A stretch of DNA of 64,000 nt, taken from contig JBAYJM010000001.1 in the NCBI GenBank assembly GCA_041665065.1, positions 23,116-87,115 on the forward strand, read 5' to 3'. The notes under the pieces were generated by a model. It was not told where the DNA came from, made no database searches, and saw only the letters and a list, made by a program, of their open reading frames with translations. The first letter of the stretch is position 1, and each line of letters opens with the position of its first letter. The translations under genes and the position numbers were made by a program. This DNA is from Candidatus Buchananbacteria bacterium. Its GTDB lineage: Bacteria; Patescibacteriota; Patescibacteriia; 2-01-FULL-39-33. This document shows, in pieces, positions 25,982-50,320 of this stretch.

Positions 25982-26668
25982 CTAGAACAGGGAGAGGACG
26001 AAAGACCAGGTGGCGTAAGCCCCGATACTAGCCAGAAGCATCAGGGAGGCCACAATAAGGAGTGGTCGACCGTAGTAAATCTGAACTTCCTCATAATACC
26101 GACCATCTTGCTGATTCTTAGTTTTGGGCTCGATGTCCAATTCTTCGTATGCTGCTAGACAGCCCTCTTTCGTCTTCTCGTTAATTAAAGCGTCCTGGCG
26201 CTTCTTTAATTCGCTTAGGGTTTTGGGGTTTGGTCGACTTTGAGTTCTTCTCTCTTCTCGTAAGAGGGTCAGTTTCCATGTGTTGCTGCTCCATGGACAC
26301 GCTCTCTCCAGCAAAAGCAAATACGCCGCTTGGTTTGCTTGGTTGTCCAGTTTGCGTAGAGCGAAATAGATGCTCTCTTGAGATTGTTTTTTCCTCGAGT
26401 ATGTCTTTAGTCCCCGTAAATCAAACAGGGGGACCATCTGAACGGAGGTTTCTCCCACCGCGGCGAGAAGGTTTCCGTCTCCGTCGAGAATTAAAATTCG
26501 GCGAGAGTACTCAAACTCCCCACTGGCAAGGTCATTGTATAGGCCCAGATCATTAACATCAAAGGGTCGTACATGGCACTCAACGACCTGGTCCTGCGGC
26601 ATGTGACGTTTGAGAAATGGGCGCTCCCGGTACAGGGCATCAACTTTGCCGGCATCAATGCAATTCAT
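25982..26668 (-). CDS. Hypothetical tail-anchored protein, GC-rich island
   Basis: 228 aa with a single C-terminal TM helix. AGGAGGC Shine-Dalgarno site. About 52% GC. Confidence 0.5.
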   Translation of the reverse strand: MNCIDAGKVDALYRERPFLKRHMPQDQVVECHVRPFDVNDLGLYNDLASGEFEYSRRILILDGDGNLLAAVGETSVQMVPLFDLRGLKTYSRKKQSQESIYFALRKLDNQANQAAYLLLLERACPWSSNTWKLTLLREERRTQSRPNPKTLSELKKRQDALINEKTKEGCLAAYEELDIEPKTKNQQDGRYYEEVQIYYGRPLLIVASLMLLASIGAYATWSFVLSLF

Positions 26669-26682
26669 AAAGTAAGCCTCCT

Positions 26683-26757
26683 GGCATCCCGCCAGTTTTA
26701 GAGATATGGCATCCCGCCACAGCTCCGCTTCTATTAATGATTACGGCATCCCACCGA
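26683..26757. repeat. Three direct repeats GGCATCCC(G/A)CC in the upstream region of the 25982-26668 gene
   Basis: Copies at 26683-26693, 26708-26718 and 26745-26755, spaced 25 and 37 nt. Confidence 0.45.
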
Positions 26758-26909
26758 AATCATTAGGCTAGTCACTAGACCAGCCAATGTACTAGTATAT
26801 ACTATATCATTTTTTTGTAAATTAGTCAATAGACGCGTAGGCGAGTTCAAAAATTCAGTTGCTGGTTAAATAAATTTGTAGTAAAATTAAAAAAACTAAC
26901 TTGACAAGT

Positions 26910-28412
26910 ATGCCATCTGAATTTTTTAATATTCGTTACGCAAAAACAAAAATCCCGATTATTTTTCCTACAGTTCTTTCAAACGAGGCAATGACTAGCA
27001 CTGAAATGGAAGAAATAGCTGGAGGGCGTTACAAAAAATCACAGCTGATAGTTTTTTATAATGGTTATGTTTTGGGTTATTGGCATCATGAAGACTATGA
27101 ACAAGCGAGAAGAAAAATTTTACAGATTCAATTGCAAAATAACCAGTTGCCAAGTTTTATAAATAAGGTAAATGAGATTTCAGCGGAAATTAGCAAGTTA
27201 CTTATAGAATTTAATAAAACTTTTTCCGAGGCCACGGATAAGAGGGCGACAGCATGGAAAACATACGATGGTGCTTGTAACCTATATAGAAGCCTTTGTA
27301 CATATGCTTATGTTGCTAATCTTTTAGACAGGATACTTACTGAAACGGTAAAAGAAGATTTAAAGCAATATATCGTTGATGAAAATAAGCTTCAAGATGA
27401 TCTTTTGGTGTTATCTCGAGCGCCTAAGGCCAATTATATGTATCAGCATGATTTGGAATTGATTGATCTTTTGGAAAAGCAATCGACCGCAGAGGAAATG
27501 GAAAATCATATCAATAAATGGTGCGGACTTTTTGGCGGTGGCAGTAATCCTGAGCTTGAAGAATTAAAAAAAGAGGTGGCTGGCAGAATTGTTTTATTTA
27601 AGGGTATGACCGAAACACAGCGCATTAAGGAGCGCGAAAACATTTCGCAAAATTTTTTACAAGCAGATGAAAATATAAAAAAATGTGAAACTGAATTGAA
27701 TCTGACAGCAGAGATAAAAGACAAATTCAAATTGTTTCGAGATGCCATTGTATTAAAGGAGGCTAGAAAAATGGCTTTGGTCAAGTTTAGTGTTGAGGCA
27801 AATTTTTTGTTTCAGGCTATATCAGATTTGACTGGCATTACAATTGATAAATTGAGATGCATGTTGCCTTCGGAAACAGAAAGCCTTCTTACAGATAAAG
27901 ATTGCGATATTAGTAATGAGATAGACGATAATGTTATATATGTCATTAATGGCGGTATAGTTGTAAAGTATGCGGGGCAGGATTTTTTTGGTAAAATTAA
28001 AGAATATGAAATAGATGAAGAGGTTCTTAAATTAAAAAATGAATTAAGCGGACCTAAAGAAACAATAAAGTCTATAGCGCCAGATTTAAAAAAAATCTAT
28101 AAGGGAATGGTCTCCTGTCGAGGACAAATAACCGCTCCGGTGAAGGTGGTAATGACGATTGCTGATTTTGGAAAAATACAAGACGGAGATATTTTAGTAA
28201 CACCCTTAACCACGCCGGAATATGTCAAAATATTTCATAAAGTTAGGGGAATGATCACGTTTGACGGGGCAGGACTTACAAGCCATCCGGCAACTCTTTC
28301 TAGAGAATACAAAATACCCGCAATTTTAGGGGTGAAGGAATTAGACGGGATTTTAAAAGATGGAGATATGGTGGAGTTAAATGCAGATAATAATGAGATT
28401 AAAATTTTATAA
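26910..28412 (+). CDS. Protein with C-terminal PEP-utilising (phosphohistidine swivel) domain; N-terminal roughly 390 aa of unknown fold
   Basis: The C-terminus (VKVVMTIADFGKIQDGDILVTPLTTPEYVKIFHKVRGMITFDGAGLTSHPATLSREYKIPAILGV) matches the PEP-utilisers mobile domain, with the conserved His in G(G/A)xTSH. The architecture resembles the substrate-binding plus His domains of rifampin phosphotransferase. Confidence 0.65.
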   Translation: MPSEFFNIRYAKTKIPIIFPTVLSNEAMTSTEMEEIAGGRYKKSQLIVFYNGYVLGYWHHEDYEQARRKILQIQLQNNQLPSFINKVNEISAEISKLLIEFNKTFSEATDKRATAWKTYDGACNLYRSLCTYAYVANLLDRILTETVKEDLKQYIVDENKLQDDLLVLSRAPKANYMYQHDLELIDLLEKQSTAEEMENHINKWCGLFGGGSNPELEELKKEVAGRIVLFKGMTETQRIKERENISQNFLQADENIKKCETELNLTAEIKDKFKLFRDAIVLKEARKMALVKFSVEANFLFQAISDLTGITIDKLRCMLPSETESLLTDKDCDISNEIDDNVIYVINGGIVVKYAGQDFFGKIKEYEIDEEVLKLKNELSGPKETIKSIAPDLKKIYKGMVSCRGQITAPVKVVMTIADFGKIQDGDILVTPLTTPEYVKIFHKVRGMITFDGAGLTSHPATLSREYKIPAILGVKELDGILKDGDMVELNADNNEIKIL

Positions 28413-28428
28413 AAATTAATTTTAAAAT

Positions 28429-29505
28429 ATGAATTTTGAAGGTGAAAAAAAATTATTGGAAGACCATAGTAGAGAGGCCAAATTTTTTGATATTGAAGAA
28501 AATGAAAACGGATCTAAAACTTATACCGTTAGATGTAGACGTCCTAAAATAAGAGATGTTTGGAAAGACGCACGCGGGGGAAAAGGAGAAATATTACGCG
28601 ATGTGGCATCTTGGGATGGCGATCAAGATTTGCAGGCGCCAGTTTTTGGAGAGGGATATCACTATGGTGTTATGATGGGTGACGTTGGACCAAAGGAGGC
28701 TATTGAAATGGAAAAGCCTGAACTGGAAGTGGCTTGTGTAAGGCATTTAAAACATGAAGGTAACGTGGTAAGTCCTCAAGATTTGGAGGCTTATAAAAAA
28801 AGGGCAGAGGAGTTGGTGGACAGTTTTAATATCGGCGAAGATGATGAGGTCTATGTTATCGCTAGTCCATCTGGCCAATGGCAAGGTCAGGAAGATAGTA
28901 ATGAGGCCGTTAAACTATCACGCACGGCAGATACCGCGGGAGTAATTAAAGATGTTTTAGAAGAAAAGGGCATAAAGTTTTTTGATAAAATAGACCCGAG
29001 AGGTGATGAAACAGGCCCCGTTGATAGCGCGCTCTTTAAGGCATTGCAGGAATTTGACATTAGAGATGATGCATTATTTGGCGAGGAAAATAAAAAAGGA
29101 ATTGCAAACTTAAGAGCCACAAAAGCCGGTAAAGACCTTCCTCATCCTGGTGCTTTGACTATGTCAGCTCCGGCTTATGCTTCGCAAGCCCCAAATCTTA
29201 AAGATCTAGTCGATAGAACCGGAATAACAGAATTAAGCAGTGCAACCATTGCCAGAACCTTTAGGGGTTTGGATGTTGCTGAGGAATATTTTCTAAATGG
29301 AAGAGGCAAAAATAATAAACGAAAAATTGTGATTATGTGCGGTCATGGACAATTTGTTACAGATATAACCGAAGCTTTTCAAAATACTACTGCCGGGCAA
29401 TTCCCTACTATTTTTGCAAACAATGGGGATTATTTTACGATGCAGGTCGGCAAAGATAAAGAAGGAAAAATAGTTGAAGAATATAATTTTACTAAACAGG
29501 ACTAA
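28429..29505 (+). CDS. Hypothetical protein (operon partner)
   Basis: 358 aa. No recognisable motifs. Spaced 17 nt and 10 nt from its neighbours. Confidence 0.5.
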   Translation: MNFEGEKKLLEDHSREAKFFDIEENENGSKTYTVRCRRPKIRDVWKDARGGKGEILRDVASWDGDQDLQAPVFGEGYHYGVMMGDVGPKEAIEMEKPELEVACVRHLKHEGNVVSPQDLEAYKKRAEELVDSFNIGEDDEVYVIASPSGQWQGQEDSNEAVKLSRTADTAGVIKDVLEEKGIKFFDKIDPRGDETGPVDSALFKALQEFDIRDDALFGEENKKGIANLRATKAGKDLPHPGALTMSAPAYASQAPNLKDLVDRTGITELSSATIARTFRGLDVAEEYFLNGRGKNNKRKIVIMCGHGQFVTDITEAFQNTTAGQFPTIFANNGDYFTMQVGKDKEGKIVEEYNFTKQD

Positions 29506-29514
29506 ATAAAAATT

Positions 29515-30783
29515 ATGAAGAAAACAACAAAGAAAAAATTTATTGATATTTCTCCGCATAGAAGTATCCTTACTAAAATTAGTCAGACTGGATATTCAAT
29601 TCAGGAGGCGCTATCAGAACTTATTGATAATGCCATTGATGCGAAGTTGCCAAGAAAAAAAATGAAAGTTACTATTGATGTTTCTGAGGATGAAATTGTA
29701 ATAACTGATACGGGCAAGGGAATGTCCGAAGATCAGGCGGCCAAATCCATCAGGCTTGGTTATTCGGAGAAGAAGTGTCAGTTAGGTGAATTTGGTTTGG
29801 GACTAAAAACATCAACATCATTTTTGGGCAAGGGATTTACCCTGGTTACTTCCCCTTTAAAGTCCAATGAGGAATACATTTTGGAATATGATGAGGGTCA
29901 TTGGCTGGAACATGGTGATTGGAATAAATATCCTTTTGTCATTAATCGAGGCGTTGATCCTGAAAAAAGCGGGACGACAATAATTATTAAAAAACTTAAA
30001 GTTAAATTTTCTGAAAAGTTATTAAGCAATATTAAGGACGAGTTTGGTATGCGTTTTGGCCCGTTTATCAGTAATGGTGAGTTAGAGCTTATTTTTAATA
30101 AAGAAATTTGTGAGTCATATGTCCCTCAGATCATAGATAATAAAAAAAATGAATTCTCATTTGAATTTAAAGGCGGTAAGGCAATTGGCTGGTGGGGATA
30201 TCAGTTAAGCGGACTTAATAAAAGTTACTACGGCTTTCATACTTATAGGCGTGGCAGGCTGGTAACAATTTATGATAAAATTGGCTTGACTCCTAATCAG
30301 ACTATTAAACAAATAATTGGCGATATTCATATAGAGGGTATTCCTATTACTCATGATAAAAAGGGTTGGTTAAAATCCTCCAAAGAATATCAGGATCTTG
30401 AAAGTAAAATGAGAGAGTATTTCAAGCCATTTGAAAAAAGACCAAGGCGTATTTTGAGTGGATTTGGAGCATCATCTGGAATTGTTATCGGCACAGTCAG
30501 GTTGGTAAATATGTTTATGTCTGGCAATATAGAAACCGAGATGAAAAGAGTAGCAAAAGGTGACATAATTGTTACCGAAATGACTAGGCCGCAGTTTCTT
30601 CTTGCCATTAGGCGATCAGCTGGAATTATAACTGATATGGGCGGTAATTTATGCCATGCAGCTATAGCTTCAAGGGAATTTAATATACCGGCCGTGGTTG
30701 GTACTCAAAATGCCACGTCTGTCCTCCAAGATGGCCAAAGGGTTATTTTGGATGGTAATGAGGGATATATATATGAAGATTAA
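29515..30783 (+). CDS. GHKL-type ATPase fused to a C-terminal PEP-utilising phosphohistidine domain
   Basis: N-terminal Bergerat-fold motifs ELIDNAIDA (N box), DTGKGM (G1), GEFGLGLK (G2). C-terminus GDIIVTEMTRPQF...DMGGNLCHAAIASREFNIPAVVG is the swivel His domain. Confidence 0.65.
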   Translation: MKKTTKKKFIDISPHRSILTKISQTGYSIQEALSELIDNAIDAKLPRKKMKVTIDVSEDEIVITDTGKGMSEDQAAKSIRLGYSEKKCQLGEFGLGLKTSTSFLGKGFTLVTSPLKSNEEYILEYDEGHWLEHGDWNKYPFVINRGVDPEKSGTTIIIKKLKVKFSEKLLSNIKDEFGMRFGPFISNGELELIFNKEICESYVPQIIDNKKNEFSFEFKGGKAIGWWGYQLSGLNKSYYGFHTYRRGRLVTIYDKIGLTPNQTIKQIIGDIHIEGIPITHDKKGWLKSSKEYQDLESKMREYFKPFEKRPRRILSGFGASSGIVIGTVRLVNMFMSGNIETEMKRVAKGDIIVTEMTRPQFLLAIRRSAGIITDMGGNLCHAAIASREFNIPAVVGTQNATSVLQDGQRVILDGNEGYIYED

Positions 30784-31897
30784 AATCGGTGAACAATATT
30801 TGCAATTTCCAAAAGTATTGCCTAACGACCTAGAAAGTTTTTTGATTTTTTATCCAAATAAATTTCCACTCATAGTGCCTTATTATAAGGAGGTGGCAAA
30901 AAAAATTGCCGGTGATCCAGAGGAATTTAAGAAATATGGCAATTGGGCGCACGATGAATTATTTGCTGGTTTTGAAAAAATTAAAAAAGATTATGAGAAT
31001 GGCGACCAGTCAAACCTTGATTTTTTAGTCAAAATTGATCAGAGATTTAATAAATTAATTTGCTATCGGTTCTGGATTGTTAATTACCTTTTTCCGGATG
31101 GACCAATACACGATTTTTATGTTGAGGTTTTAAAAAATTCAATTCGTAAATTTACAGATGTATCTGATGAGGTGGAAGAATTCGAAGGTAAAATTACAAG
31201 AATTCAAAGAGATCTTTTGCAAAGCGACTATGCCGATCTTTATTTACAGCAAGCACTCAACTCGGTAGAGTTATATGAGTTATTGGCCAGTAGTAAGAAT
31301 TCAAAATCTATTTTATCTAAGGCAGAGGATATTATTAGTCATCATAAATTGGAAGATGCGCCCGAAATAAATGTTCTTTGGGACGATCTTGTGACAATGA
31401 TCAAGGATGAAACCAATAATGATCCCACAATTTTAAAAATAAAAGATAAGCTGCAGTTTGTTATCAATCAGGCTATAATGAGAAAATCTAATCAGCCTAT
31501 TTATAATATGTTGACCCAAGCCGTTGAATTTCGTAAAGAGAATGAGGAGCTATTTAAAAGGCATGGACAGATGGGCGGTAAGTTAGATGTTATTTTTTCT
31601 CAAGCTAAAGATCGGCTTGATGCGGAGGAATTTAAATTGTTTCAGGTGGCTTATGAGCAATCTCGTAATTTTGCAATGTTTAAAGATGTTATGGGGGAAA
31701 TTGACAGGCCTCTTTTGCCGCTTTGGTTTGGATTGCATGATAAAGTTAAGGCAATCCTCACAAAAGATCAAAAAGTTGACCTTTCAAGAACAGGACATGC
31801 CTGTATGTTCTACCGTTTTGTTTGGTATTTGCCGGCACATTTAAAAGATGAAGTAATGAAGGCTGATATGACGCCATTTGATTTGAAAACAATTTAG
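30773..31897 (+). CDS. Hypothetical protein (operon partner)
   Basis: The ATG at 30773 (MKIKIGEQYLQ) overlaps the preceding stop by 11 nt. About 374 aa. No recognised family. Confidence 0.5.
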   Translation: MKIKIGEQYLQFPKVLPNDLESFLIFYPNKFPLIVPYYKEVAKKIAGDPEEFKKYGNWAHDELFAGFEKIKKDYENGDQSNLDFLVKIDQRFNKLICYRFWIVNYLFPDGPIHDFYVEVLKNSIRKFTDVSDEVEEFEGKITRIQRDLLQSDYADLYLQQALNSVELYELLASSKNSKSILSKAEDIISHHKLEDAPEINVLWDDLVTMIKDETNNDPTILKIKDKLQFVINQAIMRKSNQPIYNMLTQAVEFRKENEELFKRHGQMGGKLDVIFSQAKDRLDAEEFKLFQVAYEQSRNFAMFKDVMGEIDRPLLPLWFGLHDKVKAILTKDQKVDLSRTGHACMFYRFVWYLPAHLKDEVMKADMTPFDLKTI

Positions 31898-31911
31898 TAT
31901 TTAAAACTATC

Positions 31912-32859
31912 ATGAAAGACGTATTAAAATTAACAGAAATAGATAAAAATGATGTAGGAATCGCTGGAGGCAAGGGCGCATCGCTTGGAGAAATGACTCA
32001 GGCTGGGATTCCTGTACCGCCGGGTTTTATTATTAGTTCTGACGCTTTTGAGAAATTTTTACAGATATCGGAAATTGATAAAAAGATTGAAGCTTTACTT
32101 GCTGGAGTTGATGGCAAGGATGATGATATGGTTGAAAAAGTTTCTAAACAAATTGAAGAATTAATTTTAAAGTCAGATATTCCTGATGATTTGGTTAATA
32201 AAATATCTGATGAATATAAATTTTTAGATGCGTCATTTGTGGCAGTCAGGTCATCGGCGACAGCCGAAGATGGCGCTACATGCGCTTGGGCCGGCCAATT
32301 AGATAGCTACTTAAACACAAAAGAAAAAGATCTTTTGAAAAATATCAAGCGTTGCTGGGCTTCTCTTTTTACGCCAAGAGCAATTTTTTATAGGATTGAA
32401 AATAAGCTAGAAGATACTAAAATTTCAGTAGCGGTTGTGGTGCAGAAGATGGTTGATAGCGAAATGGCAGGCGTGGCATTTTCAGTGCACCCCGTGACTG
32501 AGGATAGAAATCAACTTATAATCGAGGCGGTATATGGATTGGGAGAGGCCTTGGTTTCAGGAATGATTACGCCAAATAGTTATGTTATTGAAAAAGACTC
32601 AAAAAATATTATTGAAAAAAATGTAATTAACCAGAAGCGCGGATTTTACAAAAATGAGGTTGAAGGAAGCAGTGATTGGAAAGACGTTGAAGATGGTCTG
32701 GGAGAAAAACAAGTGCTTTCTGATGAGCAAATAATTGAGTTATCAAATCTGGTAATGGATATAGAAAATCACTACGGTTTTCCTTGCGACATAGAATGGG
32801 CTTTTGAAAGTGGAAAGTTTTATATCGTGCAGAGTAGGCCGATAACAACTTTAAAATAA
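31912..32859 (+). CDS. Stand-alone PPDK_N / PEP-synthase-type ATP-grasp nucleotide-binding domain protein
   Basis: 315 aa. The N-terminus (VGIAGGKGASLGEMTQAGIPVPPGFIISSDAFEKF) matches the pyruvate phosphate dikinase / PEP synthase / rifampin phosphotransferase ATP-binding domain. No swivel or substrate domain is attached. Confidence 0.7.
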   Translation: MKDVLKLTEIDKNDVGIAGGKGASLGEMTQAGIPVPPGFIISSDAFEKFLQISEIDKKIEALLAGVDGKDDDMVEKVSKQIEELILKSDIPDDLVNKISDEYKFLDASFVAVRSSATAEDGATCAWAGQLDSYLNTKEKDLLKNIKRCWASLFTPRAIFYRIENKLEDTKISVAVVVQKMVDSEMAGVAFSVHPVTEDRNQLIIEAVYGLGEALVSGMITPNSYVIEKDSKNIIEKNVINQKRGFYKNEVEGSSDWKDVEDGLGEKQVLSDEQIIELSNLVMDIENHYGFPCDIEWAFESGKFYIVQSRPITTLK

Positions 32860-37993: not shown

Positions 37994-39715
37994 ATGGCCA
38001 TTGGAACAATACCGGAAAAATTCGTTGAGATAGCGGAAAAATTTCCAAATAAAACCGCCCTCATGCATAAGCAGAAGGGCAAATACAAATCAATCACCTT
38101 TACTCAATTATTTGAGTCGGTGAGAGTGGCTTGCTCGGCGCTTAAGGAAATGGGAATTGGCAAGGGCGACAAGGTTGCCATCATGTCCGAAGGCCGGCCG
38201 GAATGGGTGATAGTTGATTTGGCGGCCATGTGTCTTGGAGCGATAACTGTTCCAATCCATACGACTCTTAGCGCCAAAATTATCAACCACATAATAGAGC
38301 ACAGCGAGGCCAAAATAATTTTTGCTTCTAAAACTGAATATCTAAATAAAATTTCTCAAGATGAATGCATTTGTCTTGAGAATTTTGTTTTAATGGAGAA
38401 TTTTGTTGGGAGCGAAATTGAAATTAAAAAAACAATCAGTTGGAAAAAGTTTTTTGAATTGGTAAAAGATAAAAATTTCAAATTGGAAAAAATAGATTCA
38501 GAAGATGTTTGTACAATTATTTATACCTCCGGCACCACTGGCTTGCCCAAAGGCGTAATGCTTTCGCATAAAAATATTTTAAGCAATGTCGAGATGATTT
38601 TAAAAGGTATTCCTGCTTACTCAAGTGATACCTTCTTGTCATTTCTGCCATTGTCACATGTTTTGGAGCGAACTGCAGGCTATTATGTTCCTCTTTCGGT
38701 TGGTGCGACAATCGCTTATGCGGAAAATTCCAAAACTTTGCCCAAAAATTTGCTGGAAATAAAACCAACGATTTTGATTTGCGTGCCAAGAATTTTTGAA
38801 AAATTTAGTGATGCGATTTGGGACAATATTGGCAAGTCATCTGCGTTAAGTAAAAAAATATTTTATTGGGCGCTTAAAAGAAAAAAGGGCCTTGGGTATT
38901 TTATCGCCGATAAATTGGTTTTTAAAAAAGTTAGGAATAAAATGGGCGGACGTTTGCGCTTGGCGGTTTCCGGCGGTGCTTCGCTTGATGAAAGAATCGG
39001 CAAGTTTTTTAATAAAGTGGGAGTAAAAATTTTAGAAGGCTATGGCTTGACGGAAACAGCGCCGGTTTTGTCAGCAAACAGATTGGATAATTTTAAATTT
39101 GGAACAGTCGGACGACCTCTTTTGGGATTAGAAATAAAAATTTCTGCTGATAAGGAAATTTTAGCTAAGGGCCCGAACGTGATGAAGGGTTATTATAAAA
39201 ATGAAATAGAAACAAAAGAAGCAATTGATGATGAAGGCTGGTTCCATACCGGTGATTTTGGCTTTATTGACAGTGACGGCTTTTTGGTAATTATCGGCAG
39301 GAAAAAAGAAATGATTATAACTTCCGGTGGCAAAAATATCTGGCCGGAGCACATTGAAACAGAACTTAATTTTGATAAATTAATTTCCCAGTCAATCATT
39401 GTCGGACATAAACGGAAATTTGTTTCAGCCTTGATCGTTCCAAATTGCCAGGAGTTGAATCTATATTTAAAATCAAAAGGCTTAGCTGAAAAGAAATTAT
39501 CAGATTTAAATCATGACGGAGAAATTTTAAAAATCTATCATGACTGCGTAGGAAAAATAAACGGCAATCTGTCTGATTACGAACAAATTAAAAAATTCTG
39601 TCTGATTGATAGGGAATTCACGCAGGAATTGGATGAAATCACGCCAACTTTAAAAATCAGGAGGCATGCCATTGAGCATCATTTTAAAAGGGAGATAGAG
39701 GGGATGTATTTGTAA
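37994..39715 (+). CDS. Long-chain-fatty-acid--CoA ligase (AMP-dependent synthetase, FadD-like)
   Basis: 573 aa. AMP-binding signature IYTSGTTGLPKGV; also GYGLTE and the adenylate-binding GWFHTGD motif. Confidence 0.8.
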   Translation: MAIGTIPEKFVEIAEKFPNKTALMHKQKGKYKSITFTQLFESVRVACSALKEMGIGKGDKVAIMSEGRPEWVIVDLAAMCLGAITVPIHTTLSAKIINHIIEHSEAKIIFASKTEYLNKISQDECICLENFVLMENFVGSEIEIKKTISWKKFFELVKDKNFKLEKIDSEDVCTIIYTSGTTGLPKGVMLSHKNILSNVEMILKGIPAYSSDTFLSFLPLSHVLERTAGYYVPLSVGATIAYAENSKTLPKNLLEIKPTILICVPRIFEKFSDAIWDNIGKSSALSKKIFYWALKRKKGLGYFIADKLVFKKVRNKMGGRLRLAVSGGASLDERIGKFFNKVGVKILEGYGLTETAPVLSANRLDNFKFGTVGRPLLGLEIKISADKEILAKGPNVMKGYYKNEIETKEAIDDEGWFHTGDFGFIDSDGFLVIIGRKKEMIITSGGKNIWPEHIETELNFDKLISQSIIVGHKRKFVSALIVPNCQELNLYLKSKGLAEKKLSDLNHDGEILKIYHDCVGKINGNLSDYEQIKKFCLIDREFTQELDEITPTLKIRRHAIEHHFKREIEGMYL

Positions 39716-39862: not shown

Positions 39863-41671
39863 ATGACTACAGAACAAAAAGAAGAATATTTATCCAAGGC
39901 AAAATTGATTTTAAATAGCAAGTCAAGGGCCATCAGTTCCGAAATTGAACGCATACCGGCTGAGTCAATGAAATTAAATGAATTAAAATATGGCTCGGCT
40001 GAAGATCAATTGACTTACCAAACGATGCTGGCGACATACAGAAGACGTTTTAATGATTTACAAAATCTTTATCCGTCGCCATATTTTTATTATTGCCTGG
40101 TGAAATTTGATGGCGAGGATGATTTCAGGGAGCTTTATTTTTCAAAATTTTCTTTTGATAATGAATCAATATACTCGTGGGCATCGCCGGTATCGCAAAT
40201 CAGGTTTGAATCGCCAGGGCGTTTTGTTTTTGAAACAAATGGCAACAAACAATCGGGATTTATGATTAAAAAAGATCAGTATTTGATCAATGAAAATAAA
40301 ATAATATTTCTGGCAACGGAAAATGGAGATAATCCAAGAGAATTAATTTACCAAGAATATTTTTCCACTCGTAAAACTGCTTTTGTCTTGCCGGAAATCG
40401 TCGCACAAATGGAAAAGGCGCAGGATCAAGTGGTCAGGGCATCATTTGGGGGATTATTGGCAGTGACCGGGCCGGCCGGATCTGGAAAAACAACTTTGGC
40501 TTTGCATCGTATTGCATATTTGCTTCAGGCTCCTGAGATGTCGGAAAAATTATCAGACAAAGATATTTTGGTTTTTGTCCAAGATGAAAGTACGCGCGAT
40601 TATTTTTCGCATTTGCTTCCTGATTTAGGAATTAAGGATGTTGAAATTACAACTTTGGCTTCTTGGGCGAAGCGAATTCTGCCGTTAGCTGGCTGGGAAA
40701 TTGTCGAGCATGAAAAAGACAGCGATGCTTCTTATGTTTGGGCAAAAATAACTGCTTTGCGGGATGGAAATAAGGCAACTTGGCGAAACGACTGGTTTAA
40801 TATTTTAAATGATAAATATGGCAAGCAGTTTAATGGCGAGCAATCTGTCAGATTATCGGCGCAAAAGAAAAATAAAGTCTTGGATCGTATAGATTTGGCA
40901 ATACTTTTGTCTGCAAAATATGAAGCAGATGGATTTTTCAATATTGAAAAAGAATATTATACTGTGGCCAAGGATATGGAGCTTAAAAAGAAAACCGGCA
41001 GATTTAAAGCCTCATACAAGCTGATGATTATTGATGAATTTCAGAATTATCTGTCGGAGCAGTTAGACTTGTTCGGTAGGGCAGTCAACGAAATCGACGG
41101 TGAAAGCGTTTATATTGGTGATTTTAATCAAAGAGTAAGATTGGGCACATCTTTAAATACAGAAAGCCTCGGACAAAATTTCTCAGCAGAGAGATTGGTA
41201 AAATTATCAAAAGTTTACCGTAATACTAAAGAAATATTATTATATTTACAGGGGCTTAGATATAAAGTTAATATTCCTGAGATGATAAAGTCTGGTCCGG
41301 AGGCTAAAGAATTGGCATTCTCACAAGCAGAAGAGGCACAATATATTGCAGATCAGATTGAAAATTTAAAAGAGGTAAGTGTCGGAATTCTTTCACACAA
41401 TGAAAAAACAGTGAATTTTTACAAAGAAAGATTTAAGGAATATAAAAATGTAAAAGCCATGTCTTTGACTGATTCGCAGGGCGTTGAGTTTGATACGGTT
41501 TTCCTGGCAGGAGTCGATGACGATTTATTATCAGTAAAACATTTGCCTCAGGAACTGCAGGGAGAAATGGCAAAAATAAAAAGGGACTTGCTCTATATTG
41601 CGCTGACTAGGGCGATGAATGGATTGCATGTTTTAGGTGAGAGGAAATTAAGTGATATAATTAAGGTATGA
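39863..41671 (+). CDS. UvrD/PcrA/HelD-like superfamily-1 helicase
   Basis: 602 aa. Walker A AVTGPAGSGKTTLALHRIAYLL, Walker B MIIDEFQN, C-terminal GVEFDTVFLAGVDD. Confidence 0.65.
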   Translation: MTTEQKEEYLSKAKLILNSKSRAISSEIERIPAESMKLNELKYGSAEDQLTYQTMLATYRRRFNDLQNLYPSPYFYYCLVKFDGEDDFRELYFSKFSFDNESIYSWASPVSQIRFESPGRFVFETNGNKQSGFMIKKDQYLINENKIIFLATENGDNPRELIYQEYFSTRKTAFVLPEIVAQMEKAQDQVVRASFGGLLAVTGPAGSGKTTLALHRIAYLLQAPEMSEKLSDKDILVFVQDESTRDYFSHLLPDLGIKDVEITTLASWAKRILPLAGWEIVEHEKDSDASYVWAKITALRDGNKATWRNDWFNILNDKYGKQFNGEQSVRLSAQKKNKVLDRIDLAILLSAKYEADGFFNIEKEYYTVAKDMELKKKTGRFKASYKLMIIDEFQNYLSEQLDLFGRAVNEIDGESVYIGDFNQRVRLGTSLNTESLGQNFSAERLVKLSKVYRNTKEILLYLQGLRYKVNIPEMIKSGPEAKELAFSQAEEAQYIADQIENLKEVSVGILSHNEKTVNFYKERFKEYKNVKAMSLTDSQGVEFDTVFLAGVDDDLLSVKHLPQELQGEMAKIKRDLLYIALTRAMNGLHVLGERKLSDIIKV

Positions 41672-42270
41672 ATAATCCAAAAATAATTTTTATAGATTGG
41701 CACAAGACATTATCAAATTCGTTTTTCTGGTCTGGCAATTTAAAATATTCTGATGTATTTTTTAAGCATAATAGGGAATTAATTAATCCGTGGATGAGAG
41801 GCGAATATACCGCAGAAGAAGTTTGTAAAATTTTATCTGACCAGAATAACTTTGATTTTGATGATGTTTTAAAAAGTTTACGAGAAAGCTGTGGCAGGAT
41901 GACCTTTGTTTCTGACAAAATTCCAGAGTTGATCAAAAATATCAGATCAAAAGGAATTAAGGTTATTGTCGCAACTGATAATATGGACACTTTCTCTCGA
42001 TTTACAATTCCGGAATTGGATTTAAAAAATATTTTTGATGATTTTTTGCTCTCTTATGATCTTAAGGTTTTGAAAAATGATGTAGGAGAAAATTCAATTC
42101 CATTTTTTGACGATTATTTAAATAAAAATTCATTGGATTATAGAGATTGTGTTTTATTGGATGATAGCGGATCGAGTTCGGTTTATGATAGCCTTGGGTT
42201 TAAATCAGTAATGATTGGAAATGGCGATGAGTTATTAGATGTTTTAGAAAATATACTGAAAATTAATTAA
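41668..42270 (+). CDS. HAD-like hydrolase (degenerate motif I) or hypothetical
   Basis: 200 aa. FIDWHKTLS where the HAD DxD motif would be, K-containing motif III, LLDDSG motif IV. Low confidence. Confidence 0.35.
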   Translation: MNNPKIIFIDWHKTLSNSFFWSGNLKYSDVFFKHNRELINPWMRGEYTAEEVCKILSDQNNFDFDDVLKSLRESCGRMTFVSDKIPELIKNIRSKGIKVIVATDNMDTFSRFTIPELDLKNIFDDFLLSYDLKVLKNDVGENSIPFFDDYLNKNSLDYRDCVLLDDSGSSSVYDSLGFKSVMIGNGDELLDVLENILKIN

Positions 42271-42277
42271 TAAAATA

Positions 42278-42928
42278 ATGAAAGGAATAATAATCGACGG
42301 TGTTGCATCATCTGGAAAAACAATGATTTTTCAGCTCCTGCAAAAAAAGCTTGTAGAATTCAAGCCATCGACGACTAAACTATTTATCAGCGAACATTAT
42401 ACTCAAAGAATGATTGAACATCTAAGAGATGATGGAAGTTTGAACGGAGGCGATATTAAAAAGCATATTGAAAAAATAATTACTGTTTTATCAGAATTTC
42501 AAAACATGTTGGAAGCCTCAAAATTTAATAATCAGCAGGCAAATGCAGACTCTATTGTCGTATTAGAAAGATTTATTTTAACGCATTTTGTTTCGCAAAA
42601 AAATGAAGATGATTTTTCAATAGACGATGCAAAAATTTATTTTACTAAATTAAAAAATTTTAATATAAAGCAAATTCTATTAATTATTCCACAAAACAAA
42701 ATAAGAGAAAGGATAATGTCGACCTTGAATTATCGAAATGACGCCTGGAAAGAATATTTGCTTTCAAAGGGCAGTGAAGATCAAATAATTGAGGAATATA
42801 TAAAATGGCAAGAAAAATGTATTAAATACGCTGGAATTTTTAAAGATTTTATCGACACTGAAGTTATAGAAGTAAAAGAAAATGATTATGATAATTATGT
42901 CGAAAAGATTTTAAAATCATTAACATGA
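42278..42928 (+). CDS. P-loop NTPase (nucleoside/nucleotide kinase-like), unknown specificity
   Basis: 216 aa. N-terminal Walker A IIIDGVASSGKTM. Confidence 0.45.
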   Translation: MKGIIIDGVASSGKTMIFQLLQKKLVEFKPSTTKLFISEHYTQRMIEHLRDDGSLNGGDIKKHIEKIITVLSEFQNMLEASKFNNQQANADSIVVLERFILTHFVSQKNEDDFSIDDAKIYFTKLKNFNIKQILLIIPQNKIRERIMSTLNYRNDAWKEYLLSKGSEDQIIEEYIKWQEKCIKYAGIFKDFIDTEVIEVKENDYDNYVEKILKSLT

Positions 42929-43001
42929 ATAAATCACTCAAAATTCGTATATTTTTCCATTTATGGTATAATTTTAAGTAAATTAGCAAAGATATAGTAA
43001 T

Positions 43002-43913
43002 ATGCCCAGGGAGAAGAAAATTTGCCTATTGTTTTTCGGCGATTATTGTTCCCAAGACCAAATGAGCGTTTGGTTGGAAAATATTCCAGAGCTGAAGGTT
43101 TTAAATAAAATTGAGCCAATCTTTGTTTTTGGTAAAAACACCGTTGAAGTTATGGTCGGTGATTGGTTGAGGTTGGCAAAAATAATTTCTGATTCAGCTG
43201 AAAAATACGACGGCTTTGTTGTACTTCACAACATAGAAAATTTGCTTTTTTCTTCCGCGGCTATTTCCTTTCTCTTGCCTAATTTTGCAAAACCAATAGT
43301 TTTTACGGGCGGCTTAAGTCCAAAGGCTAAAGATTCAGGCATAAAATCCAATATAATAAATGCATGCCAATTAGCGGGTCATCCTTTGGCTGAAGTCTGC
43401 CTTCTTTTTGGCAATAAAATTTTGCGCGCTAACCAGGCTTCAAGAAATTATTCTTCGTCTCTTAATTTATTTCAGGCATCATCTAGCGGTTCATTGGGAC
43501 AAATAGATTTCAGTATAAGAATTTTCAATCAAACCAAAAGGGATATAGAAAACAAAGTGAAAATGGTCTCAGATTTGGAAGAAAATATTTTAATAGTAGA
43601 GGCTACACCAATATTGTCGATTGCTTCTCTTAAGGATGCTATTAAAAATAAAAAGGGCTTATTAGTTAAGGCCGATGTTAATAAAATTTCTTCAATAGTT
43701 ATAAGTGCATTAGAGGAAATATCTAAAAAAATGCCAGTTGTGATTTTCGGCAAACAGCAAACAGACCAATTGCCCGACGGATTTATTGTGGTTTCTAATA
43801 TGACTCTAGAGGCCAGTATTATTAAGTTGATGTGGTCATTAAAACAAGTAGCCGCACCCACAAAAATAAAAGACTTAATGCATAAGAATGTGGCAGGAGA
43901 AATAATTATATGA
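43002..43913 (+). CDS. Hypothetical protein
   Basis: 303 aa. Start at ATG 43002 after AGGGAG. No confident family. Confidence 0.4.
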   Translation: MPREKKICLLFFGDYCSQDQMSVWLENIPELKVLNKIEPIFVFGKNTVEVMVGDWLRLAKIISDSAEKYDGFVVLHNIENLLFSSAAISFLLPNFAKPIVFTGGLSPKAKDSGIKSNIINACQLAGHPLAEVCLLFGNKILRANQASRNYSSSLNLFQASSSGSLGQIDFSIRIFNQTKRDIENKVKMVSDLEENILIVEATPILSIASLKDAIKNKKGLLVKADVNKISSIVISALEEISKKMPVVIFGKQQTDQLPDGFIVVSNMTLEASIIKLMWSLKQVAAPTKIKDLMHKNVAGEIII

Positions 43914-44509
43914 AAATCTATTTTTCCGTTGCCCAAAATACAGAAAAGAATACTGATTTAGCAGAGCAGGTTGTTAGGATTTTAAATCAGGCCGGTATAT
44001 TAGTTCTGAGTAATTATAAGCAGGAGGATATTTTTGAATTTGCAGAGCAGGATTTAGAAAGAGTGGAGAATTCCGGTGAATCTATTTTGAAAAAGATAGA
44101 TGCCATAATAATTGACAGTAATTCGTCCACGGAAGAAAGCGGTTATTTAATAGCTCTAGCCTTAACCCATAAAAAACCGATTTTATATCTTGCAGAGAAA
44201 GGAAATGTTTTGGACAGGCATCTGTCGGGATTGCTGAAAAACAAGGATGTGGCTAAAATACTAAAGGTTGCATTTTATTATGATCAGAATTTAGAAAAAG
44301 TGATTTTGAAATTCATCACGGAAATTGAAACTGGCTATGGTATTGAAAATCCAAATATCAAATTCACTTTAAGAATTACTTCCAGAATTGAGCGTTATTT
44401 ATATTGGAAAACTCATAATACAAAGACATCCAAGGCCGATTACTTACGTGATATCCTAGAAAAAATGATCGCTGAAGATGAGGAGTATAAAAAATATTTG
44501 AAGGAATAA
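43910..44509 (+). CDS. Hypothetical protein, possible nucleoside 2-deoxyribosyltransferase-like Rossmann domain
   Basis: 199 aa. KIYFSVA...AGILVL...AIIIDSNSSTEESGYLIALALTHKKPILYL has the flavour of the NDT/DUF4062-type fold. Low confidence. Confidence 0.35.
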   Translation: MKIYFSVAQNTEKNTDLAEQVVRILNQAGILVLSNYKQEDIFEFAEQDLERVENSGESILKKIDAIIIDSNSSTEESGYLIALALTHKKPILYLAEKGNVLDRHLSGLLKNKDVAKILKVAFYYDQNLEKVILKFITEIETGYGIENPNIKFTLRITSRIERYLYWKTHNTKTSKADYLRDILEKMIAEDEEYKKYLKE

Positions 44510-47393: not shown

Positions 47394-48005
47394 ATGGATT
47401 ACAACAACAGCTATAAAAAACATCATCAATTGTGGGGCAATATGCCAAACAATTTAATAACAATGTTTGAAGGTGAGTTTGAACAAAATTGTAACTGTCT
47501 TGATTTAGGCTCCGGCCAAGGTCGTGATTCACTATATCTCGCTGGGAAGAATTTTAAAGTAACATCGGTTGACTCATCTGGGGTTGGAGTTGATCAATTA
47601 AAAGGTAAATCCATTGAACAGGGGCTTGTCTCAAATTTAGAATTAATATGTGAAGACGTATTGTCATTTAATATTCCCACACAAAAATTTAAAGTTATAA
47701 ATGCGATTAATTTGCTACAATTTTTACCCCGCCAACAAAGCTTATTGCTTATAGATAATATAAGAAAATCCATCGCTAACTCTGGCTTTATTATAATTAA
47801 GGCTTTTACCGTTAATGACTCCTCTTTTATTAAAAAGAGAGATAATAAAAATATGACATTCTTTTACCCCGATGAACTTAAAGGAATATTTAATGATTTT
47901 AAGATTAGACATTATTTTGAATATATTACCCTAGATCAGGGGCATGGGGACACTCCTGAGCCACATTTGCATGGAATAGTTGAAATTGTGGCACAAAAAA
48001 TTTGA
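47394..48005 (+). CDS. TehB-like SAM-dependent methyltransferase
   Basis: 203 aa. Motif I CLDLGSGQGRDSLYLA resembles tellurite-resistance methyltransferase TehB. Confidence 0.65.
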   Translation: MDYNNSYKKHHQLWGNMPNNLITMFEGEFEQNCNCLDLGSGQGRDSLYLAGKNFKVTSVDSSGVGVDQLKGKSIEQGLVSNLELICEDVLSFNIPTQKFKVINAINLLQFLPRQQSLLLIDNIRKSIANSGFIIIKAFTVNDSSFIKKRDNKNMTFFYPDELKGIFNDFKIRHYFEYITLDQGHGDTPEPHLHGIVEIVAQKI

Positions 48006-48236
48006 GTTTTGTTTAAATTGTAGCTGCGTATCTTTTTGCAAATATAAACAATTAATCGATTTAATATTTAAATGGTTTATAAATTCCGCCGTTTGGCGGT
48101 TTTTTTGTTTTTTTGGTATAATATAAATATAATCTATATTATGCTTTTAAATATTTATAAGATAATAGGCTTTATCCCTGGCTGACTACTTACGGAATTC
48201 TCTTGAAATGATATGTTATAAAAACTGATTTAAAAT

Positions 48237-48920
48237 ATGGCTGCAATTATTATTCTTTTAGTTCTCGCTTCGTTATTTAATCTTGCTTTGACGTTTATTG
48301 TTTGGCGCAGGAATTATAAAAGTCCAATGAATATTTTTTATTCCTTGGCAAATCTTGGTGTTTTTTTCTGGGTTATTTGTCAGGTTGGCATATTTATGCC
48401 AGTCAATGCTGAAATGTTATATTTTTCCTGGATTGCAAGTTATATCTCCGGAGCTTTTATTGCAGTCAACGTGGCGATCTTTAGTTTTTATTTCCCTTTC
48501 GCTAAAAATATAAACAAAAAGATAATTTTTATTATTTATTTATTGTTTTTTGTCTTGTTATTTTTATTATTTATCCCAGGATTTATTGTTAACCCAATGA
48601 CGTCAGTAACTGGTTATTCGTCGTCATTAGAATTAAAGGCTTCTTTATGGGGGTCTGTTATTTATGGTGTTTATTTTGTAATCATGTTTTATATATTTTT
48701 TAATAATTTTATAAAAAAATATATCAATATAGATGGATTTGCTAAGTCGCAAATTAAATTAATTTTAATTGGTGTTTCCGCAATCTTGCTTATGGGTCTT
48801 ATAACAAATGTAATAGCACCTATTTATATCGGGTCAAATATCGGTTGGATTGGGCCATTATCTTCTGTTATTATGGCTTTTTTTGCCCTTCATCTTTTAT
48901 ACTTTAAGCAGGATAAATAG
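48237..48920 (+). CDS. Stand-alone 7TM membrane domain protein (histidine-kinase N-terminal 7TM-like)
   Basis: 227 aa, seven hydrophobic helices. Resembles the N-terminal membrane domain of the sensor kinase at 51035. Confidence 0.5.
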   Translation: MAAIIILLVLASLFNLALTFIVWRRNYKSPMNIFYSLANLGVFFWVICQVGIFMPVNAEMLYFSWIASYISGAFIAVNVAIFSFYFPFAKNINKKIIFIIYLLFFVLLFLLFIPGFIVNPMTSVTGYSSSLELKASLWGSVIYGVYFVIMFYIFFNNFIKKYINIDGFAKSQIKLILIGVSAILLMGLITNVIAPIYIGSNIGWIGPLSSVIMAFFALHLLYFKQDK

Positions 48921-48929
48921 ATTTAACTT

Positions 48930-49592
48930 ATGCTTCTACTTATTTACAAAATAACCGCCTTATTAATTCCTATCTCAGCTTTTGGTGTTGGTTTTTATAG
49001 TCTATATTTAAATCCTAAATCAAAGCTCATCTGGCTATGGTTTTTAACAAGCTTATCTGTTGGTTTGTGGGGAGTGGGATTATTCGGCCTTTTGATTGCA
49101 CAAGATCACGATCAGGCTCTCTTTTTTATTCGTTTTTTGCAATCCTTCTCTGTTTTTATTCCTGTTTTCTATTTACATTTCATCCTAACATTTCTACATA
49201 TAGATAGAAAAAAAACGGCTTTTTTTGTTGTGCCTGCATATATTTTATCCCTAATATTTTCAGTTTTATCTTGGACGTCAAATATTTTTGTTGCAGAAGC
49301 TGCTCCTATGGCTGGATTTGATTATTGGGTTAGCGGAGGCCCATTATATATGATTTATATAGTCTATTTCGCGGTCTGCGTTCTATTAACCCTAGCCTTT
49401 TTATTTCTCTACTATTATAAGAGCGATGGAATAATAAAAAAACAAATTGCTTATATTATTGTTATTTCGTTAATCGGTTTTATTTCTGGGGGCACTAGTT
49501 TTTTGCCTATACTATTTAATATGTATCCGTTTGGAACTTTTATTACTTTTACATACCCAATACTTGTTACTTATAGTATTTTTAAAAAATAA
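48930..49592 (+). CDS. Stand-alone 7TM membrane domain protein (paralogue of 48237 and of the kinase N-terminus)
   Basis: 220 aa. SLSVGLWGVGLFGLLIAQDHDQALFFIRFLQ parallels LSIFAWSIGFFGVVISKQQHVAFLWQYLLD in the kinase. Confidence 0.5.
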   Translation: MLLLIYKITALLIPISAFGVGFYSLYLNPKSKLIWLWFLTSLSVGLWGVGLFGLLIAQDHDQALFFIRFLQSFSVFIPVFYLHFILTFLHIDRKKTAFFVVPAYILSLIFSVLSWTSNIFVAEAAPMAGFDYWVSGGPLYMIYIVYFAVCVLLTLAFLFLYYYKSDGIIKKQIAYIIVISLIGFISGGTSFLPILFNMYPFGTFITFTYPILVTYSIFKK

Positions 49593-49693
49593 TTCGGTTT
49601 TTAATGTCAATGGATGGGGTGGCAAGGAATAAAATTACTAGCACTAATTCAAAAAGATTTTTTGGAAAGAGAGTAAAATTATAATTTTTTAAT

Positions 49694-50320
49694 ATGACCT
49701 ATAAAATCATAAAGTTTCTCTTTGCCCCAATCATAAAGCTGCTTTGGATTAAAAAAGTTGAAGGATTAGAAAATATCCCAGAAACAGACAGAATAATTTT
49801 AGCCTCTAATCACGAAAGCTACTTTGATTTTATTTGTCTTGCGGCTATTAGCCCAAGGCCGGTTTATTTCTTGGCGGGTGAAGTATTTTTTAAGAAGTGG
49901 TATTTTAGGCCACTGATGAAAATGACCGGACAAATCAGAGTGGATAGGAATCAAAAAGATAAATCCCAGGCAGTAAATAAGGCTTTAGAAATTTTGGAAC
50001 GGGAAAAAGTTTTTGGTATATTTCCAGAAGGCACCAGGTCAGCGGACGGTAAATTGCAAAAAGCTTATACGGGGGTTGCAAAAATTGCTTTGAAGTCAAA
50101 ATCTAAAGTTATTCCCGTGGGAATGATTGGTACATTCGAAATTATGTCGCGACATGATAAATATCCCAAGTTTAAAAAATGCAAAATCAAAATTGGAAAG
50201 GCAATCAACCTGAGTCAATATTATGGGAAAGAAGAGGACAAAGAAGTTTTAATTAATATAGCTGATAAAATAATAATGCCCCAAATTGCCAAGCTAACGG
50301 GTGAGGAGTATAATTTTTAA
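49694..50320 (+). CDS. plsC: 1-acyl-sn-glycerol-3-phosphate acyltransferase (PlsC family)
   Basis: HxxxxD motif NHESYFD, and the FPEGTRS motif. Confidence 0.8.
   Translation: MTYKIIKFLFAPIIKLLWIKKVEGLENIPETDRIILASNHESYFDFICLAAISPRPVYFLAGEVFFKKWYFRPLMKMTGQIRVDRNQKDKSQAVNKALEILEREKVFGIFPEGTRSADGKLQKAYTGVAKIALKSKSKVIPVGMIGTFEIMSRHDKYPKFKKCKIKIGKAINLSQYYGKEEDKEVLINIADKIIMPQIAKLTGEEYNF

Follow-up and report, generated by a model that had tools for sequence, protein, structure and literature searches.

A stretch of 64,000 nucleotides from Candidatus Buchananbacteria, a bacterium of the Candidate Phyla Radiation (CPR), which is referred to here as the window, contains on its + strand five co-directional open reading frames (ORFs), g1 to g5, that together span positions 26910-32859. 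On balance, this operon probably encodes a multi-subunit dikinase-type phosphohistidine system that is built around a MORC ATPase. The conserved core of the system consists of a MORC ATPase that is fused to a phosphohistidine swivel domain (g3), an orphan helical protein (g4), a phosphatase and a stand-alone ATP-grasp protein (g5). The operon is far beyond what can be expected by chance, since each of the proteins has homologues and the gene set recurs in approximately 90 loci. An earlier sequence-only reading of this DNA had listed the same five ORFs, which an ORF check confirmed, and the motifs that it quoted are all present in the sequence.

The MORC-swivel protein and its partners

The central component, g3 (29515-30783, + strand, 422 aa), begins with a GHKL (Bergerat) ATP-binding domain (29593-29922), for which residues 27-136 match Pfam HATPase_c_3 with an E-value of 5.5e-17. 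The motifs of this domain are all present, namely ELIDNAIDA with E35 and N39, DTGKGM (D65-x-G-x-G) and GEFGLGLK (G91-x-x-G-x-G). It is followed by an S5-fold transducer domain (30193-30420), and residues 227-302 match Pfam Morc6_S5 with 28.8 bits against a cut-off of 26.2. The closest PDB sequence matches of g3 are MORC3, MORC2 and MORC4, and both the GHKL and the S5 stretches are matched. The S5 motifs YGFHTYRRGRL and THDKKGW (K282/K283) align to YGIMMYHRNRL and THNKQDF of MORC3, with the second stretch corresponding to MORC3 residues 308-367. The GHKL ATPase that had been noticed in the sequence-only reading was correct but can be refined, as these matches identify the N-terminal 300 residues as a true MORC module (GHKL and S5) and not a generic GHKL domain. 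The isoelectric point of g3 is basic (pI 9.0), whereas g1, g2, g4 and g5 are acidic, which would fit with nucleic-acid binding but is no proof of it.

The C-terminus of g3 is formed by a swivel domain (30553-30765), in which residues 347-417 match Pfam PEP-utilizers with an E-value of 3.4e-24. The catalytic His381 (codon 30655-30657) is part of an L-C-H motif within the PpsA-like sequence GGNLCHAAIASRE, and the domain keeps the PpsA-type GG-x-x-C-H-AAI-x-x-RE signature. It also matches positions 350-463 of the NCBIfam phosphoenolpyruvate (PEP) synthase model (E 2e-32), although the overall NCBIfam scores of g3 remain far below the cut-offs, both for PEP synthase (112 versus 598) and for RIF_Ptrans_rph (NF041857; 71.3 versus 999). 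Across 30 members of the g3 family, conservation extends to the catalytic Glu and Mg-binding Asn, to the two glycine boxes, to the S5 lysine and to the swivel His, which is invariant. In total, 261 homologues with 55-87% identity were found, in many CPR classes and in Clostridia.

The conservation of the gene set was surveyed in 91 loci from genomes and metagenomes that contain a g4 gene, in which ORFs were classified by means of family hidden Markov models (HMMs); the counts were not de-duplicated. These loci belong to CPR bacteria, DPANN archaea and gut Clostridia. The MORC-swivel gene is located directly upstream of g4 in 76 of the 77 loci with enough upstream sequence, and of the 40 loci with at least 3 kb of downstream sequence, 35 have a PPDK_N gene and, counted separately, 35 have a histidine-phosphatase-type gene, so that the genes proposed in the sequence-only reading to work together do co-occur. 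Two subtypes can be distinguished. Subtype I, found in Clostridia and many CPR bacteria, contains g3, g4, a phosphatase of another family (X) and a short ATP-grasp protein of 186-293 aa, and no other swivel protein. Subtype II contains g3, g4, a g2-type phosphatase, a longer ATP-grasp protein of about 250-330 aa (mostly full length) and one to three extra swivel proteins, and the window operon, whose genes are permuted in order, belongs to this subtype. The sole swivel-bearing protein beside the stand-alone ATP-grasp protein is g3 in all gut Clostridia loci and in at least 19 of the 40 loci with 3 kb or more downstream, a number that rises when shorter Clostridial loci are included. Because the MORC fusion is the only swivel protein in subtype I, it is strongly implied that the ATP-grasp g5 charges the g3 swivel in trans, and this is the strongest argument for such a transfer.

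In agreement with the sequence-only reading, g5 (31912-32859, + strand, 315 aa) is a PPDK_N ATP-grasp domain only (Pfam E 1.3e-98). It aligns end to end with the ATP-grasp residues 5-316 of the rifampin phosphotransferase of Listeria (RPH-Lm), and also with 9goj (387 aa). K21, R113 and S132 of g5 correspond to K22, R117 and T136 of RPH, which position ATP (PMC4844700). K21 and R113 do not vary among 47 distinct PPDK_N proteins from module loci, in which position 132 is occupied by T or S; the short ATP-grasp forms do not have two peripheral segments but have kept K21, R113 and T132. The NCBIfam scores of g5 were 339 against a cut-off of 598 for PEP synthase, with one domain covered, and 297.8 against 999 for RIF_Ptrans_rph.

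The g4 gene (30773-31897, + strand, 374 aa) has a frame that is open from a TTG at 30698, and its homologues start at the ATG at 30773. No consistent match was found in Pfam, NCBIfam, PADLOC, PHROGs or PDB sequences, and in this respect the statement in the sequence-only reading that genes 2 and 4 have no recognisable family holds for g4, but not for g2 (see below). The predicted structure is all-alpha, with 18 helices and a predicted local distance difference test score (pLDDT) of 93.1, and g4 has no relative in the PDB. There are 96 homologues, in CPR and DPANN, and in this family invariant charged residues are clustered; a conserved polar cluster of g4 comprises D19, K30, E138, D155, K304, D305 and D311. 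The last 11 nt of g3, stop codon included (30773-30783, + strand; ATGAAGATTAA), also form the start of g4, and a near-identical overlap (tATGArnaTTRA) was found in 18 of the 20 loci inspected, ranging from CPR to Clostridia, while two archaeal loci showed a similar form. At the g3/g4 junction of the window, L001, L004, L009-L017 and L036-L042, the overlap tATGAAgatTGA is kept almost base for base, which suggests translational coupling under a dual coding constraint. The protein g4 is an orphan helical family and the obligate partner of g3.

The g2 gene (28429-29505, + strand, 358 aa) gave no hit in Pfam, NCBIfam, PADLOC or PHROGs and remained below the gathering scores of His_Phos_1 and His_Phos_2. 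It has a core of approximately residues 97-358, preceded by an N-terminal extension of about 95 aa. The predicted model has the alpha/beta fold of the histidine-phosphatase superfamily, and all of its matches are histidine phosphatases, among them SixA, which acts on phosphohistidine. R105-H106, R165 and H306 are invariant in the family and are candidate catalytic residues. In a profile-profile comparison, g2 and the X family are related with an hhalign probability of 88.6%, a link that was missed by BLAST and jackhmmer and was seen only by this comparison and by structure. X family proteins show the motifs RHG, SPT..RAxET and THGE and have sub-threshold His_Phos_1 hits (E 3e-4 to 0.14). In the hhalign columns, SRT and GHG of g2 fall on RAxET and THGE of the X family, and R105-H106 lies downstream of the X-family RHG; R105-H106 was therefore assigned from its motif and from the fold match. 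From the profile comparison and the model, g2 appears to be a divergent member of the histidine-phosphatase superfamily. SixA and PGAM5 are phosphohistidine phosphatases of this superfamily, and SixA acts on carriers of the phosphotransferase system (PTS) type and on histidine phosphotransfer (HPt) carriers. Compared to these two, g2 is far larger, with its 95-aa N-terminal extension and inserts, and it scores below the Pfam thresholds. The substrate of g2 could also be a phosphorylated product rather than phosphohistidine.

The phosphatase belongs to the X family in 24 loci and to the g2 type in 11 loci. In two archaeal loci, from Woesearchaeota and Diapherotrites (L033:9363-10412 and L031:6014-6730), a gene with the fold of low-molecular-weight protein tyrosine phosphatases adjoins g3/g4 (LMWPc E 2e-6 and 6e-8) and replaces the bacterial histidine-phosphatase-type gene, a case of non-orthologous displacement. 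Because an unrelated phosphatase occupies the same place in these loci, phosphatase activity would be the selected function.

The first gene, g1 (26910-28412, + strand, 500 aa; alternative TTG start at 26901), is an accessory of subtype II loci that travels with the g2-type phosphatase; in 11 of 11 loci, this phosphatase was accompanied by an extra swivel protein. It consists of an N-domain (residues 1-395) and a C-terminal phosphohistidine swivel domain (28176-28391), in which residues 423-494 match Pfam PEP-utilizers (E 4e-17). The catalytic His459 (codon 28284-28286) is located in a T-S-H motif within GLTSHPATLSRE and is invariant in the family alignment. Swivel domains with a catalytic His at the C-termini of g1 and g3, as put forward in the sequence-only reading, are thus found in both proteins. 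The g1 family is small, with 15 representatives among 1.84 billion proteins, all of which combine the N-domain with a swivel. The family profile aligns in one stretch to residues 459-866 of RPH (5fbs), and an HMM of the N-domain alone matches RPH 459-760 with 13.9 bits (pairwise E ~1e-6). K283-E284-A-R286-K287 of g1 (27756-27770) may form a second phosphotransfer site, as indicated by family conservation and the RPH alignment: K283, R286 and K287 reach 90% or more conservation among family members, and K283-E284-x-x-K287 falls on R666-E667-Y-P-K670 of RPH-Lm. In RPH, R666-E667-x-x-K670 is the second phosphotransfer site that contacts the transferred phosphate, and R666 and E667 are essential according to mutagenesis (PMC4844700). 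The g1 N-domain therefore looks RPH/HpeH-like, with a putative acceptor site, although the relation to RPH outside this motif appears weak, and the RIF_Ptrans_rph score of g1 was 49.6 against a cut-off of 999.

Two other proteins with g1-like domains were encountered. An exhaustive search with the g1 N-domain revealed a protein of 1500 aa (P0227) with three tandem units of a g1-like N-domain and a swivel, and three PEP-utilizers matches, which is in effect a concatenated array of phosphohistidine carriers. The other is a 562-aa protein (L042:203-1891) in which an HTH_26 DNA-binding domain at the N-terminus is combined with a g1-like N-domain (hhalign 94%) and a swivel, and which is encoded 8 kb upstream of a g2-g3-g4 cluster.

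Distribution and genomic setting

The module is accessory and horizontally spread. Its sporadic, domain-crossing distribution over CPR, DPANN and Clostridia at high identity implies horizontal transfer. In the g3 family, a 90% cluster (P0103) comprises 613 member sequences, with index entries in 440 blocks of the assembly collection. A single chromosomal context, in sporulating Firmicutes, is common to most of its contigs that were read. For gut Clostridia, hundreds of samples showed the module at one fixed chromosomal position. At this position, an AraC regulator with a GyrI-like/Cass2 effector-binding domain is encoded divergently and immediately upstream of the MORC-swivel gene (L001:7074-7892 and other gut Clostridia loci), and this protein is a possible small-molecule-responsive regulator of the Clostridial module. 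Nearly all contigs of gut Clostridia (L001-L003, L019-L028 and L068-L082) end approximately 200 bp after the PPDK_N gene, whatever the assembly, which suggests that a repeated element, such as an rRNA operon or insertion sequence, lies immediately downstream.

Across the loci, the flanking genes encode tRNA synthetases, ATP synthase, UvrC, GyrA, YchF, TatD, FtsH and ribosomal protein S1. Defence families were not enriched among 150 flanking ORFs when searched with PADLOC and Pfam, which gave housekeeping and generic helicase hits only, and no g4 was found among 72,556 plasmids, 50,697 phage genomes and the IMG/VR viral contigs. TrmB-family regulators, the commonest flanking Pfam family, were excluded as part of the module since they lie several kb away at inconsistent positions. 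In one locus only, from Candidatus Campbellbacteria (L040:16679-21266; CP064977.1), phage-like and methylase genes were found near the module, in the form of AAA_24, Phage_rep_O, a ParB-N6_N4 methylase and a cytosine methylase, approximately 3 kb downstream and after a YchF GTPase gene.

The NCBI record for the protein identical to g3 lists Candidatus Buchananbacteria. In the window, the operon is bounded on both sides by housekeeping genes. Upstream neighbours encode TsaD, a PilB-type ATPase and two unknown membrane proteins, and downstream are genes for FtsH, a CDP-alcohol phosphatidyltransferase and ribosomal protein S1. The genes g1 to g5 are separated by 16, 9, -11 and 14 nt, respectively; the sequence-only reading had the overlap right, but its other three distances (17, 10 and 15) were one too large, as they were calculated as start minus end. 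A 241-nt gap on the + strand (26669-26909), preceded by a divergent gene (25982-26668), is a possible promoter region of the operon. The promoter and terminator scan was uninformative, with one weak sigma-70-like promoter match at 26776-26803 that was not above shuffled expectation. Further downstream, at 5-9 kb, the + strand encodes an AMP-binding (acyl-adenylate-forming) enzyme (37994-39715) and a UvrD-like superfamily-1 helicase with weak Pfam scores (39863-41671), and no link of either to the operon was seen. The G+C content drops to 0.31 at 42001-44000 and 0.30 at 48001-50000, compared to ~0.37-0.40 elsewhere in the window.

Proposed mechanism and rival explanations

In all characterised relatives, with PEP synthase, PPDK and RPH among them, the swivel His attacks the beta-phosphate of ATP at the ATP-grasp domain and then carries the phosphate to a second site (PMC4844700), and in HpeHI the ATP-grasp is a separate polypeptide (PMC12167813). 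For the operon described here, the domain identities, the conserved catalytic residues and the gene co-occurrence were established directly, and from these we infer charging by g5 in trans, a complex of g3 and g4, a role for the phosphatase, and an acceptor. In the proposed mechanism, g5 would bind ATP and the swivel His would attack the beta-phosphate, yielding AMP, then inorganic phosphate (Pi), and His~P. In the window operon, g5 presumably charges g1 as well as g3. His459 of g1, using its own RPH/HpeH-like site (K283/E284/K287), would then phosphorylate some small molecule. The His381 swivel of g3 would ride on a catalytically intact MORC GHKL and S5 ATPase, with g3 and g4 made in a fixed proportion. 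Because of the strict g3-g4 coupling and the invariant charged residues of g4, the phosphate of g3~P is likely used in the presumed g3/g4 complex, where the phosphohistidine would either be passed to a bound acceptor or gate an ATP-driven MORC clamp or dimer. Finally, g2 would take the phosphate off the carrier His or off the product and so reset the system. A more specific version, in which the core is a writer-carrier-eraser circuit and a clamp ATPase of the MORC type is fuelled or gated directly by the phosphohistidine that a mobile domain carries, is tentative, and we lean somewhat against it. In such a circuit, His~P could re-phosphorylate the nucleotide bound to GHKL, or phosphorylate DNA or protein that is held by MORC or g4.

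Several observations weigh against the multi-subunit system as proposed. Five of the 40 loci have no nearby PPDK_N gene, including L042, the closest relative, with a g3 that is 87% identical, where g2-g3-g4 are present without PPDK_N within 10 kb, so that either the ATP-grasp linkage is not obligatory or the gene is located elsewhere in those five genomes. Two loci (L037 and L067) have no recognisable phosphatase, and the confidence of the g2 model is moderate (pLDDT 67.7). The similarity of the g1 N-domain to RPH was significant only in a targeted pairwise test, with nothing at E <= 1 across the PDB, g4 is not similar to the rifampin-binding domain of RPH, and no acceptor site was found in either g3 or g4.

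Restriction-modification is the most common setting of prokaryotic MORCs and paraMORCs (PMC2292703), and the module could accordingly be an anti-phage or conflict system, in which MORC senses or clamps foreign DNA and switches on the ATP-grasp, swivel and phosphatase trio, so that a futile cycle (ATP + 2 H2O → AMP + 2 Pi) or phosphorylation of a target leads to ATP depletion and abortive infection. A kinase and a phosphatase that act on one carrier would indeed amount to net ATP hydrolysis, and the sporadic, cross-domain spread over CPR, DPANN and Clostridia at high identity, the variable number of accessory swivel proteins and the one locus (L040) that lies 3 kb from phage-like and methylase genes would suit such a role. 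The sole defence hits in PADLOC and NCBIfam were to the GHKL protein MzaB, but they cover only residues 22-106 of g3, with 29-38 bits against a cut-off of 850, and g1, g2, g4 and g5 have no PADLOC hits. We consider this explanation unlikely, since the flanks are housekeeping genes without defence enrichment among the 150 ORFs, the helicase, nuclease and methylase partners of typical prokaryotic MORC operons are missing, g4 is absent from the plasmid, phage and IMG/VR collections, the chromosomal position in gut Clostridia is fixed over hundreds of samples, and the conservation of g3 (55-87% identity) is unusually high for a sensor. It is quite unlikely that the module is a phosphotransferase that inactivates xenobiotics or antibiotics like RPH does. 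Here, the GHKL ATP pocket, possibly with g4, would bind a small molecule, for example a GHKL-targeting natural product or a nucleotide analogue, that is phosphorylated by the swivel His~P, and g1-like proteins would add substrate specificities. The order of a binding domain followed by a swivel, with a separate ATP-grasp, is the RPH/HpeH logic and is shared by g3, the g1 family keeps the RPH phosphate-handling motif, the AraC regulator with its GyrI-like effector-binding domain divergently adjoins the gut Clostridia module, and the distribution is accessory with horizontal transfer. However, a mere pocket would make the full MORC ATPase machinery that has been kept (E35, N39, the G-boxes and the S5 lysine) superfluous, a dedicated phosphatase would reverse an inactivating phosphorylation, the RIF_Ptrans_rph scores of g1, g3 and g5 are all far below 999, and no substrate clue was found.

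The operon could also consist of chance neighbours, with g1 and g5 as an HpeHI-like dikinase and g2-g3-g4 as a separate MORC module, of which the swivel is either charged by its own GHKL domain or vestigial. By themselves, g1 and g5 reproduce the HpeH/HpeI architecture, and L042 has g2-g3-g4 and no PPDK_N gene within 10 kb. GHKL domains of sensor kinases are known to phosphorylate histidines, but that of g3 is of the MORC/MutL type with an S5 transducer and is not the catalytic and ATP-binding domain of a histidine kinase. Moreover, the g3 swivel retains the PpsA-type signature and an invariant His, and PPDK_N accompanies g3-g4 without any g1-like protein in the 19 or more loci mentioned above and in all gut Clostridia loci, which makes a chance arrangement improbable. 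A fragmented PEP synthase or pyruvate phosphate dikinase (PPDK) of central carbon metabolism, as might be suspected from homologues named 'PEP-utilizing enzyme' or 'pyruvate, water dikinase' and from PEP synthase models being the best partial hits in NCBIfam, is hardly credible. The NCBIfam PEP synthase and PPDK scores are all below their cut-offs (339 for g5 and 112 for g3 versus 598) and cover one domain each, and this option was rejected as the PEP/pyruvate-binding TIM-barrel (PEP-utilizers_C) is present in none of the five proteins. HPr, EIIA or receiver-domain acceptors, as in PTS and His-Asp phosphorelays, were found neither in the five proteins nor in their conserved neighbours.

Relation to described systems

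The sequence-only reading could match the arrangement to no described system. This holds for the arrangement as a whole, since a full-text search of the searchable literature yielded no description of the MORC-swivel fusion or of the gene set, but not for g1 and g5, which probably map to two-component RPH-like dikinases. One of these is phenylphosphate synthase PpsAB, a two-component small-molecule dikinase. Another is HpeHI of Rhodococcus, which consists of the ATP-grasp HpeI and of HpeH, with a substrate-binding domain and a C-terminal His swivel (PMC12167813). In this comparison, g5 resembles HpeI, and g1, and in architecture g3, resembles HpeH; the pair g1 and g5 appears to be a new member of this group. 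HpeHI converts ATP to AMP, Pi and a phospho-substrate via phosphohistidine, and by analogy we propose the same for the system described here. Unlike HpeHI, the system described here ties one ATP-grasp to a MORC-borne swivel, and in the window also to a second swivel protein, and its conserved set includes a dedicated phosphatase and the orphan helical g4. Its genes have no aromatic-catabolism context, and it is hosted by CPR, DPANN and gut Clostridia. The likeness to RPH (PDB 5FBS/5FBT/5FBU; PMC4844700) lies in the end-to-end match of g5 to the ATP-grasp, the match of the g1 and g3 swivels to the RPH swivel, the counterparts of K22, R117 and T136 (as Ser) in g5, and the R666/E667/K670-type motif in g1, as K283/E284/K287. 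However, the parts are separate polypeptides here, the rifampin-binding domain with its three subdomains cannot be recognised in full, and in g3 the MORC module stands in its place.

With prokaryotic MORCs and paraMORCs (PMC2292703) and eukaryotic MORC2/3/4, g3 shares the GHKL and S5 domains, all ATP-binding motifs and the MORC-type S5 motifs, and with the prokaryotic proteins also a sporadic, horizontally spread distribution. About 70% of prokaryotic MORC operons are linked to a superfamily II (SFII) helicase, nuclease or methylase (Iyer, Abhiman & Aravind 2008, PMC2292703), whereas none of these is present in the conserved neighbourhood of the ~90 loci. In addition, g3 differs in its C-terminal swivel fusion, which is not mentioned in the 2008 survey of prokaryotic MORCs (PMC2292703), and in having an ATP-grasp, a phosphatase and the orphan helical g4 as its partners. 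For the core of g3, g4, phosphatase and ATP-grasp, no counterpart has been described in the searchable literature.

A precedent for the use of His~P on a protein-bound nucleotide is provided by the dihydroxyacetone kinase DhaM-DhaL-DhaK, in which a phosphohistidine carrier re-phosphorylates ADP that is held permanently on an all-helical subunit. By analogy, this could apply to a nucleotide bound to GHKL or to g4, but g4 has no detected sequence or fold similarity to DhaL, and the phosphate source here would be ATP via the ATP-grasp, and not PEP via the PTS.

The dikinase chemistry itself is known, whereas its coupling to a MORC motor is new, as are the dedicated phosphatase and the orphan partner. 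The system may even be of a functionally new type, although we hold this for rather less than an even bet. The analysis also assigned a fold and a likely activity, based on a predicted model, to the 'hypothetical' family of g2 and X, and defined g4 as a new orphan helical family. MORC ATPases are best known for clamping and compacting DNA; they have a central role in the silencing of animal and plant genes, and their regulators are poorly understood. To our knowledge, phosphohistidine swivel domains have so far been found in metabolic dikinases, pyruvate kinase and PTS enzyme I. A conserved MORC-swivel fusion that comes with an ATP-loading subunit and a phosphatase of its own would be the first GHKL/MORC motor that is coupled to dikinase chemistry, and since the four-gene set is small, strongly conserved and abundant in human-gut Clostridia, it is directly testable in vitro. 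If the writer-carrier-eraser circuit is true, it would represent a novel way of controlling an ATPase of the chromatin type, or a conflict system of a new class, that CPR, DPANN and gut Clostridia share through horizontal transfer.

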